A stretch of 64,000 bases of DNA from Eledone cirrhosa (Eukaryota). Positions 57,588 through 58,255 of this stretch are shown here, piece by piece; position 1 is the stretch's first letter, and the number at the start of each line of letters is the position of its first letter. The DNA is taken from assembly GCA_964016885.1 (NCBI GenBank), contig OZ024740.1:322028001-322092000 (forward strand). The letters are read 5' to 3'. Under the pieces are notes generated by a model that was given only the letters and a program-made list of their open reading frames with translations, did no database searches and was not told where the DNA came from. The position numbers were made by a program, and so were the translations under genes.

Positions 57588-57735
57588 ATAAGGGTTGACG
57601 GACCCAGCATATTTATCAATGCCAGTACCAGTTGTATCTCAGCGTATTCAATGGGCAATGTAAGATACATTACCAGAGTATACACATAGTTATTTGCCTC
57701 AACACAACACCCGTAAAACGGGTGCCTATAAGGTT

Positions 57736-57845
57736 CCCGGACTCGAGTTTCTGCAGCATTAATGCAGCAGTAAGGTGCACTGCACCATCTGTCTGCATAT
57801 GTTATGCAACAATGCACAATCGGCTTATGCGGCTTCATCAGCGGG
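57736..57845 (-). ncRNA. Type I hammerhead ribozyme with extended stem II
   Basis: CCCG-CTGATGA-AGCCGCAT…ATGCTGCA-GAAA-CTCGAG-TC-CGGG gives a 4-bp GC stem I, a palindromic stem III ACTCGAGT, a GUC site and an 83-nt stem II region. It lies within a roughly 410-bp island (57588-57996) flanked by (TA)n. Confidence 0.75.
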
Positions 57846-58255
57846 TATCGCCTAATCAATAACCAATCGATCGACAGAATCCAAACACCGGCCCATGCCG
57901 GTCACGACTGTTTGTGACAACCGACACGGTAAAGCGACTAGCAACTGGCAACCAATAGGACTCTCTCTCAACTATCCACCGATTTACAAATTTTACATAT
58001 ATATATAAATGAAATGAAATGAAATTTTCTGTTTAGTTGACTTCCTAGGAAGTTGTATCTCATGGGAGGTTTCTCGGGGCCCATGTGTTATCACCCTGAT
58101 ATATAATTTTTTTTTTTTTGTATACAATCTTTCCCAACAATAAAATTCAACAAACTTAAACTACCAAAAATGCATTAGAATTACAAGCCGCCACTATACA
58201 GATAATAATTTCTGTGAAATCAAAACTAATGTCTGTATTTTTATTATTATTTCAG

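Follow-up and report, generated by a model that had tools for sequence, protein, structure and literature searches.

An island of about 410 bp lying between TA tracts, in a stretch of 64,000 nucleotides of Eledone cirrhosa DNA (the window), raises the question of what kind of element carries a hammerhead ribozyme with core boxes as far apart as 83 nt, and whether this ribozyme can be expected to work. The core boxes, the CCCG/CGGG stem I, the palindromic stem III, the 83-nt spacing and the flanking TA tracts, all named in an earlier sequence-only reading of this DNA, were read directly on the minus strand. Taken as a whole, our analysis makes it probable, though well short of certain, that the island belongs to a non-autonomous Penelope-like element (PLE) which has a type I hammerhead near its 3' end, with a stem II predicted as a three-way junction, and which is copied by a borrowed protein.

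A dispersed family with a fixed 3' end

A DNA search with the island across the eukaryotic 3.0-Gb assembly gave 3,134 first-look candidates, the best 40 of which are 94-100% identical to it over nearly its whole length, and the pattern CTGANGA-N70-100-GAAACTCGAGTC has 726 exact matches in the genome as against 0 for the reversed control; the island is thus a member of a multi-copy family, as had been supposed, and not a single-copy sequence. The copies run upstream to a common start, which gives a unit of about 842 nt, and 131 unit starts were counted. The window copy is 95% identical to a natural full unit (L012:1071-1912), and covers its positions 431-842 only. Hence of the short TA-flanked element of about 410 bp originally described, the TA flanks stand, while the island is a 5'-truncated piece of the unit rather than the whole element.

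The ends of the copies behave very differently from each other. Among 30 copies, all retrieved by a 3' motif, the 3' end lies at unit position 842 in 27, and the 5' starts are scattered from position 4 to 811; in the same set, five copies are partial tandems, in which a 3' fragment is followed by a full unit, and one contains an inverted piece. Of 55 copies, 48 show a TA or TAT repeat immediately behind the 3' end, and 33 show a TA repeat at the 5' end. Head-to-tail junctions between units are common; among 90 loci they take the form of partial tandems only, with two complete units at none of them. Moreover, the insertions at L064 and L079 are longer than one unit, and the predicted cut site is crossed twice in them.

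The earlier statement that the island has no credible ORF holds for the unit as well, since the longest ATG ORF has 60-91 aa in four full units (none above 91 aa), and two stop-free frames spanning the island have no match in Pfam. Lacking an ORF for reverse transcriptase (RT) and GIY-YIG endonuclease, the unit is not an autonomous PLE. In its 5' region, where an intron might be expected in a PLE, a donor-like GTAAGT is seen at unit position 31, and GAGAGTAA is kept in all of the subfamilies A, B and C described below; a tRNA-like head was found in none of four loci examined. The fixed 3' end, the 5' truncation, the partial tandem (pLTR) and the inverted arrangements are hallmarks of PLEs, and the anatomy of the unit matches the PLE description in the available part of PMC8557442. 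This non-coding repeat is therefore likely to be a non-autonomous Penelope-like retroelement, in support of the ribozyme-bearing, non-autonomous retroelement family proposed in the sequence-only reading.

Layout of the ribozyme

The features of the window copy are collected in Table 1, together with the loci of two other hammerhead families discussed below. The motif is likely a self-cleaving type I hammerhead of the PLE type, as far as the modelled structure can tell, and its core with the extra A accords with the PLE hammerhead consensus CUGANGAH (PMC4209133 supplement, in part). The spacer between the core boxes takes 83 nt (57834-57752). Its insert amounts to 67 nt as compared with 3-10 nt for loop 2 in the published descriptor, and the motif is accordingly filed as a hammerhead variant; the expectation that such a stem II could be missed by standard descriptors is borne out for this one, the maximum there being 10 nt. 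No Rfam hammerhead was reported at E<=10 in window positions 55000-61000 or in eight loci. However, Rfam was equally silent on the short-stem hammerhead candidates in three of these eight loci, so that its silence is not due to the stem II length alone.

Table 1. Features of the window copy and loci of two further long-spacer families (positions are those of the window unless a locus is named)
Feature	Position	Strand	Remark
(TA)n/(TG)n tract	57511..57587	.	borders the element's fixed 3' end; likely target
Element copy	57588..57996	-	5'-truncated, unit positions 431-842 of ~842-nt non-coding Penelope-type element; young subfamily A
Hairpin downstream of cut	57708..57724	-	perfect solely in window copy; not a family feature
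Alternative hairpin, predicted	57719..57739	-	would sequester stem I 3' strand; present in minimum-energy folds
Stem I 3' strand CGGG	57736..57739	-	4-bp stem I
C17	57740..57740	-	predicted cleavage 3' of this base; GUC, but GUA in subfamily C
Core GAAA (57751-57748) and palindromic stem III ACUCGAGU (57748-57741)	57741..57751	-	
Stem II base 3' strand and position 11.1	57752..57759	-	C.U mismatch at pair 3 in window copy
Insert hairpin P2b, ~15 bp predicted	57762..57798	-	kept in subfamily C with shifted bulge
Insert hairpin P2a, 8 bp predicted	57801..57820	-	closing pair broken in window copy
Stem II base 5' strand, 7 nt	57827..57833	-	partner strand 57753-57759; pairs 3 and 4 show compensatory changes
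Catalytic core CUGAUGA (57841-57835) and extra A	57834..57841	-	extra A usual in PLE hammerheads
Stem I 5' strand CCCG	57842..57845	-	89.7% of cells paired, 39 copies
Conserved 35-nt block upstream of ribozyme	57846..57880	-	ATTGG word (reverse CCAAT) inside
Short (TA)n tract	57997..58008	.	at the truncated 5' end
Family D loci	L131:5700-6620; L223 (G000:C1:156425000-156434999)		
Family E loci	L239:1026-4820 (G000:C1:52360500-52364300); also L238, L240-L244		

The helices differ in how far the copies support them. In the 8-nt palindrome of stem III 98.7% of cells pair, and an 8-bp duplex is predicted between two copies. P2a has 97.8% of its cells paired and shows no double-sided change, and P2b is stable in all subfamilies and weaker in C, with a median z against mononucleotide shuffles of -4.2 in A (78 copies), -5.6 in B (16) and -1.8 in C (47). 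Stem I is identical in A, B and C and is without covariation, and other folds compete with it. Among these, the alternative hairpin has a score reached by 290 of 500 shuffles, and so has no support from covariation, and a further predicted pairing joins the 3' end of the upstream 35-nt block to the CUGAU core; neither this downstream "switch" hairpin nor the upstream core-pairing one has covariation beyond shuffles, and both stay predictions. The second hairpin behind the cleavage site, formerly taken as a feature of the element, has to be given up as such, since it is perfect in 1 of 157 copies, namely the window copy, and 130 of the 157 carry a base that breaks it.

Conservation and compensatory changes among subfamilies

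After pieces below 150 nt and duplicates were dropped, 172 of 211 aligned pieces were kept, that is, 89 copies of subfamily A, 20 of B and 63 of C, of which the B copies are a biased sample mostly retrieved by the core pattern. A divergent sequence in three sequencing runs of one sample, considered as a different family or as the helper, proved to be the older subfamily C. For the comparison of majority letters between A and C, which are about 70% identical, only copies retrieved without the ribozyme pattern were used (75 A and 31 C). None of the 11 core columns differs between the two, which bears out the expected conservation of the core boxes; in core plus stems, 2 of 39 columns differ as compared with 206 of 711 elsewhere (P=0.0007). 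The upstream 35-nt block differs in one of its 35 columns, while in the insert, with 14 of 67, the rate of change could not be told apart from that of the remaining columns. Hence the ribozyme is apparently under purifying selection, to judge from these alignments. In fact the two differing ribozyme columns are partners in one pair: most A copies (68 of 76) have G-C there, and most C copies (35 of 44) have A-U. The core itself is intact in 28/29, 24/33 (A), 9/22 (old C) and 12/18 copies, and at position 17 subfamilies A and B have a C where subfamily C has an A, both bases being cleavable under the NUH rule (PMC4209133 supplement, in part).

The covariation check on the stems, proposed earlier, thus gives compensatory changes in the stem II base and none in stem I. 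Within A, another stem II pair passes from C-G (48/76) through C.U (12 copies) to A-U (4 copies), and most of the C.U and all of the A-U copies fall in one clade with a support of 0.78 in a tree of 74 copies built on non-ribozyme columns. With C.U in 12 of 76 A copies, this lineage has been amplified with an imperfect stem; the window copy is outside the clade, and its own mismatch may therefore be private. Among 39 selected intact copies the share of paired cells is 92.2%, and the covariation score, which relatedness inflates, is reached by 0 of 500 shuffles; the number of double-changed pairs is not above shuffles (349/500), and independent compensatory events seen are two only. At the very base of stem II, position 11.1 is A in subfamily A, the youngest, and C in the older B and C: the opposition is A.A in 72 of 76 A copies and mostly A.C in B and C. 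The consensus G10.1-C11.1 pair next to the core is possible in B and C, and the A.A of A is within the "extra N10/N11" of the descriptor.

Predicted folding of monomer and dimer

The whole island folds better than its shuffles (z -3.35). In typical copies the spacer forms a 7-bp helix with two hairpins, with a pair probability of 0.98 in L002, and the prediction for stem II is a three-way junction in which the 7-bp base closes the 67-nt two-hairpin insert; the RNAalifold structure contains the base of stem II as well as P2a, but neither stem I nor P2b as drawn. The same spacer fold has a probability of 0.11 in the window copy.

In terms of model energies, which include no tertiary contacts for either monomer or dimer, the ribozyme fold of the monomer lies on average about 10 kcal/mol above the minimum, with a stem I probability of 0.01-0.11; the active fold is disfavoured because stem III has 2 bp only and because hairpins take up the core and the 3' strand of stem I. 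For three typical copies, a dimer in which one site is active comes out 2.5-3.5 kcal/mol higher than the dimer minimum and 8.6-9.3 kcal/mol lower than two monomers. For the window copy, the active site in the dimer lies 7.3 kcal/mol over the minimum. Stem II and P2a are damaged in this particular copy (Table 1), and it is probably weak or dead as a ribozyme.

Other hammerhead families and the neighbourhood of the window copy

A scan of 59 loci revealed other hammerheads with long spacers. Family D has a spacer of 49-51 nt, with 1,311 pattern matches (control 1), and is arranged in retrozyme-like tandem arrays with a 457-nt repeat; double-sided changes affect 7 of its 26 pairs in a set of 10 distinct copies, a level that 0 of 500 shuffles reach. 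One array of this family, of about 28 units, flips strand. Family E has a spacer of 88-93 nt and 2,857 pattern matches (control 1), and is a tandem element of about 3.55 kb, with inverted pairs and a 777-codon open frame (L239:1399-3729). This frame has no Pfam match, and its protein motifs resemble by eye those of the Hydra-1_Obim protein in the portion available of the PMC8557442 supplement, so that family E can be read from its sequence as a young autonomous Hydra-like PLE. The base of its stem II is A.A in most sampled copies and A-U in three more diverged loci, and its arm is predicted to fold as one long irregular hairpin with no junction. Between the unit and the Hydra-like PLE loci tested there is no detectable DNA similarity.

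Short-stem relatives gave 9 matches (control 1), of which L121 and L124 derive from the present family and the rest are unrelated. Several further motifs were observed aside from these families. In the window, a TA-flanked repeat at 15780-15900 (minus strand), seen also at L146:4462, has a hammerhead-like motif with a 36-nt spacer and a near-palindromic stem III, and another repeat at 37870-37910 (minus strand), seen also in L100 and L132, has a hammerhead-like motif with a short stem, its spacer being 18 nt long; hammerhead-like motifs with palindromic stem III and spacers of 61 and 92 nt occur at L121 (reverse strand position 467) and L245:4848, respectively. PLE families with long frames of RT and C-terminal GIY-YIG are seen at L130:3909-6722, L132:875-4162, L133, L136 and L140. 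The frames of L130 and L132 carry a CxxC linker, for which we presume the label Neptune-like.

Around the window copy itself, a long imperfect inverted repeat of about 140 nt, MITE-like, lies at 57200-57342, 250 nt from the element, and a possible 54-nt exon, with splice signals judged by eye, lies at 58256-58309 (plus strand). If this exon is real, the element would be antisense in an intron and the ribozyme absent from that pre-mRNA. Reverse transcriptase fragments (Pfam RVT_1) are found in the window at 805-1233, 33093-34457, 44931-45296 and 55019-55531, one of which is followed by a PHD finger.

Probable templates of insertion and the proposed helper

In the mechanism that we propose, a tandem or read-through transcript of the unit would be reverse-transcribed by an RT/GIY-YIG protein taken from elsewhere, the Hydra clade being its most likely source; this helper would nick (TA)n DNA, and reverse transcription would start at the junction between two units. 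The ribozyme would be mostly off as a monomer and would cleave slowly once the palindromic stem III brings two copies together, which would set free RNA of unit length that could circularise; the insert would be a structured addition, tolerated on top of a 7-bp helix under selection. The genomic copies, in turn, appear to derive from templates that were either uncut or circular. The predicted cut precedes the 3' end of the element, which sits at the inter-unit junction, by about 152 nt, and 5' ends at the predicted cut site (positions 686-694) occur in 0 of 30 copies; together with the double crossings of the cut site, these argue for templates that were uncut tandems or circles. By analogy this would agree with Anolis Poseidon, for which the part of PMC11167929 available describes reverse transcription starting inside the RNA and hammerhead cleavage being unneeded for insertion in vitro. 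Four copies (L075, L076, L077 and L299) start at unit position 699-700, at a TATA word 10 nt past the predicted cut, and these starts likely arose through microhomology with the (TA)n target.

As for the helper, subfamilies A and B have TATTATCTCC at the junction and subfamily C has TATTTTCTCC, and a TATT(T/A)TCTCC-like junction word of about 9 nt is shared with family E, a second autonomous Hydra-like PLE and the tandem retrozyme D. This short motif may point to the Hydra clade as the source of the helper. In the available part of the PMC8557442 supplement, Hydra PLEs have (TA)n targets and frequent mismatches at the base of stem II. By blastn the unit has no match in 59 PLE/hammerhead loci or in eight family E loci, and PLE proteins compared with 171 and 196 loci of the family hit neighbouring insertions only; no autonomous element sharing the sequence of the unit was found in the loci compared.

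Alternative explanations

The most serious alternative, which we nevertheless hold to be rather unlikely, is that the hammerhead of the young subfamily no longer cuts, the fold being kept as a signal for helper binding or folding or as part of a promoter. The A.A at the stem II base of nearly all A copies and the spread of the C.U lineage would fit such a loss, as would the competing folds that are predicted to hide the core and stem I, the lack of 5' ends at the predicted cut site (0/30), and the upstream 35 nt, which are as conserved as the ribozyme; in addition, PLE hammerheads cut poorly in vitro (PMC4209133) and are dispensable there (PMC11167929), according to the portions of these papers at hand. 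Yet all 11 core columns are the same in A and C, the descriptor leaves room for one more base at either side of stem II (PMC4209133 supplement), an axolotl retrozyme hammerhead with U.U at the equivalent place is described in PMC7229834 as cleaving, and A.A is found as well in family E, which is young and autonomous. The preferred reading keeps a ribozyme that would still cut, slowly and mainly as a dimer.

The path of the RNA after cutting separates this reading from a classical non-LTR retrozyme, in which the self-cleaved 842-nt monomer circularises and the circle is the obligatory template of insertion. The common head-to-tail junctions speak for it, together with L064 and L079, which exceed one unit and could not be templated by a linear cut monomer, and retrozymes have been proposed as PLE derivatives (bioRxiv 10.64898/2026.07.22.740005, in part). 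However, the unit is about twice the 150-450 bp given for animal retrozymes in PMC7229834, no locus among 90 has two complete units, and uncut tandem RNA accounts equally well for the longer-than-unit copies, so that we regard an obligatory circle as improbable. Still further down the scale, and very improbable in our estimate, is that the copies are the terminal repeat of an unsampled coding PLE, or that the hammerhead is a coincidence in a SINE-like repeat. The genome has 10,596 GIY-YIG candidates and just 59 loci were compared with the unit, which leaves room for the former; but the followable starts among 30 reach the ribozyme in 359-711 nt or the 3' end in 753-983 nt, and in the loci read, out of 196 screened, PLE fragments near the copies are set apart by TA tracts or unrelated DNA. 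A SINE-like coincidence, on its side, would have to do with no tRNA-like head in four loci and with 0 matches of the control pattern.

Significance and comparison with known systems

Palindromic-stem-III hammerheads of PLEs, retrozymes and their PLE origin are already known (PMC4209133; PMC7229834; PMC6765202; bioRxiv 10.64898/2026.07.22.740005), as the accessible parts of these reports tell. An 80-90-nt branched stem II in animal retroelements was not found in the literature covered, most subscription papers and Repbase being outside the scope, and judged by its sequence the unit's hammerhead is a new structural variant of the PLE/retrozyme hammerhead. It might even be, though we put this forward only as a tentative possibility, that a stem II of 50-92 nt, partly branched, makes up a hidden recurring class in animal PLEs and their parasites, in which the arm is selected and tunes cleavage or binds the helper, and in which the youngest lineages of two unrelated families have independently acquired a weaker, A.A stem II base that slows cleavage. 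If true, such a long-arm class would explain part of the "missing" or "half-core" Naiad hammerheads. Genomic counts of hammerheads rest on descriptors with a short loop 2, and in one genome about 4,900 copies that match the exact patterns, from three unrelated families, are outside the short-loop limits. Moreover, for the question of whether cleavage matters for transposition the present genome provides a ready test set: an autonomous PLE that is intact, a retrozyme in tandem arrays and a parasite in dispersed copies, each with a long arm, and with natural A.A versus paired variants. U.U at the stem II base is compatible with cleavage (PMC7229834, PMC3088659, both in part), and a cleavage test of A.A at this place was not found in the literature covered.

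Among known systems, as far as the available portions of the cited sources describe them, the closest are the metazoan PLE hammerheads of Cervera and De la Pena (2014, PMC4209133), which share with the unit CUGANGA with its extra base, the 4-bp stem I, the 7-bp stem II base, the palindromic stem III, the place near the 3' end of the element and the predicted cleavage as a dimer; the unit departs from them by a 67-nt two-hairpin insert in place of a loop 2 of 3-10 nt, by A.A at the stem II base in its young subfamily A, and by a carrier without an ORF. With the Hydra-clade PLEs of Craig et al. (2021, PMC8557442) it shares (TA)n targets, 5' truncation, partial tandems and the mismatch at the stem II base, and with the Hydra-like PLE of the present genome the same junction word and a long stem II; however, the listed loops of the clade are 3-10 nt, and the unit has neither RT nor endonuclease. 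Like the animal non-LTR retrozymes (PMC7229834; bioRxiv 10.64898/2026.07.22.740005), the unit is non-coding, low in GC and likely PLE-driven, with a type I hammerhead and head-to-tail junctions, but these are tandem arrays of 150-450 bp, whereas the 842-nt unit occurs mostly as dispersed truncated copies. The term "long helix II" used for viral hammerheads means 6-8 bp (PMC13725137). Finally, the spike-moss PLE hammerheads, with loops of 29-35 nt, and the "half-core" motifs of Naiad, with halves 35-50 nt apart (PMC8557442), resemble the unit in that the halves of the core are farther apart than usual; what sets the unit off from them is a spacer of 83-84 nt, predicted to be branched, with conservation and covariation across its subfamilies.
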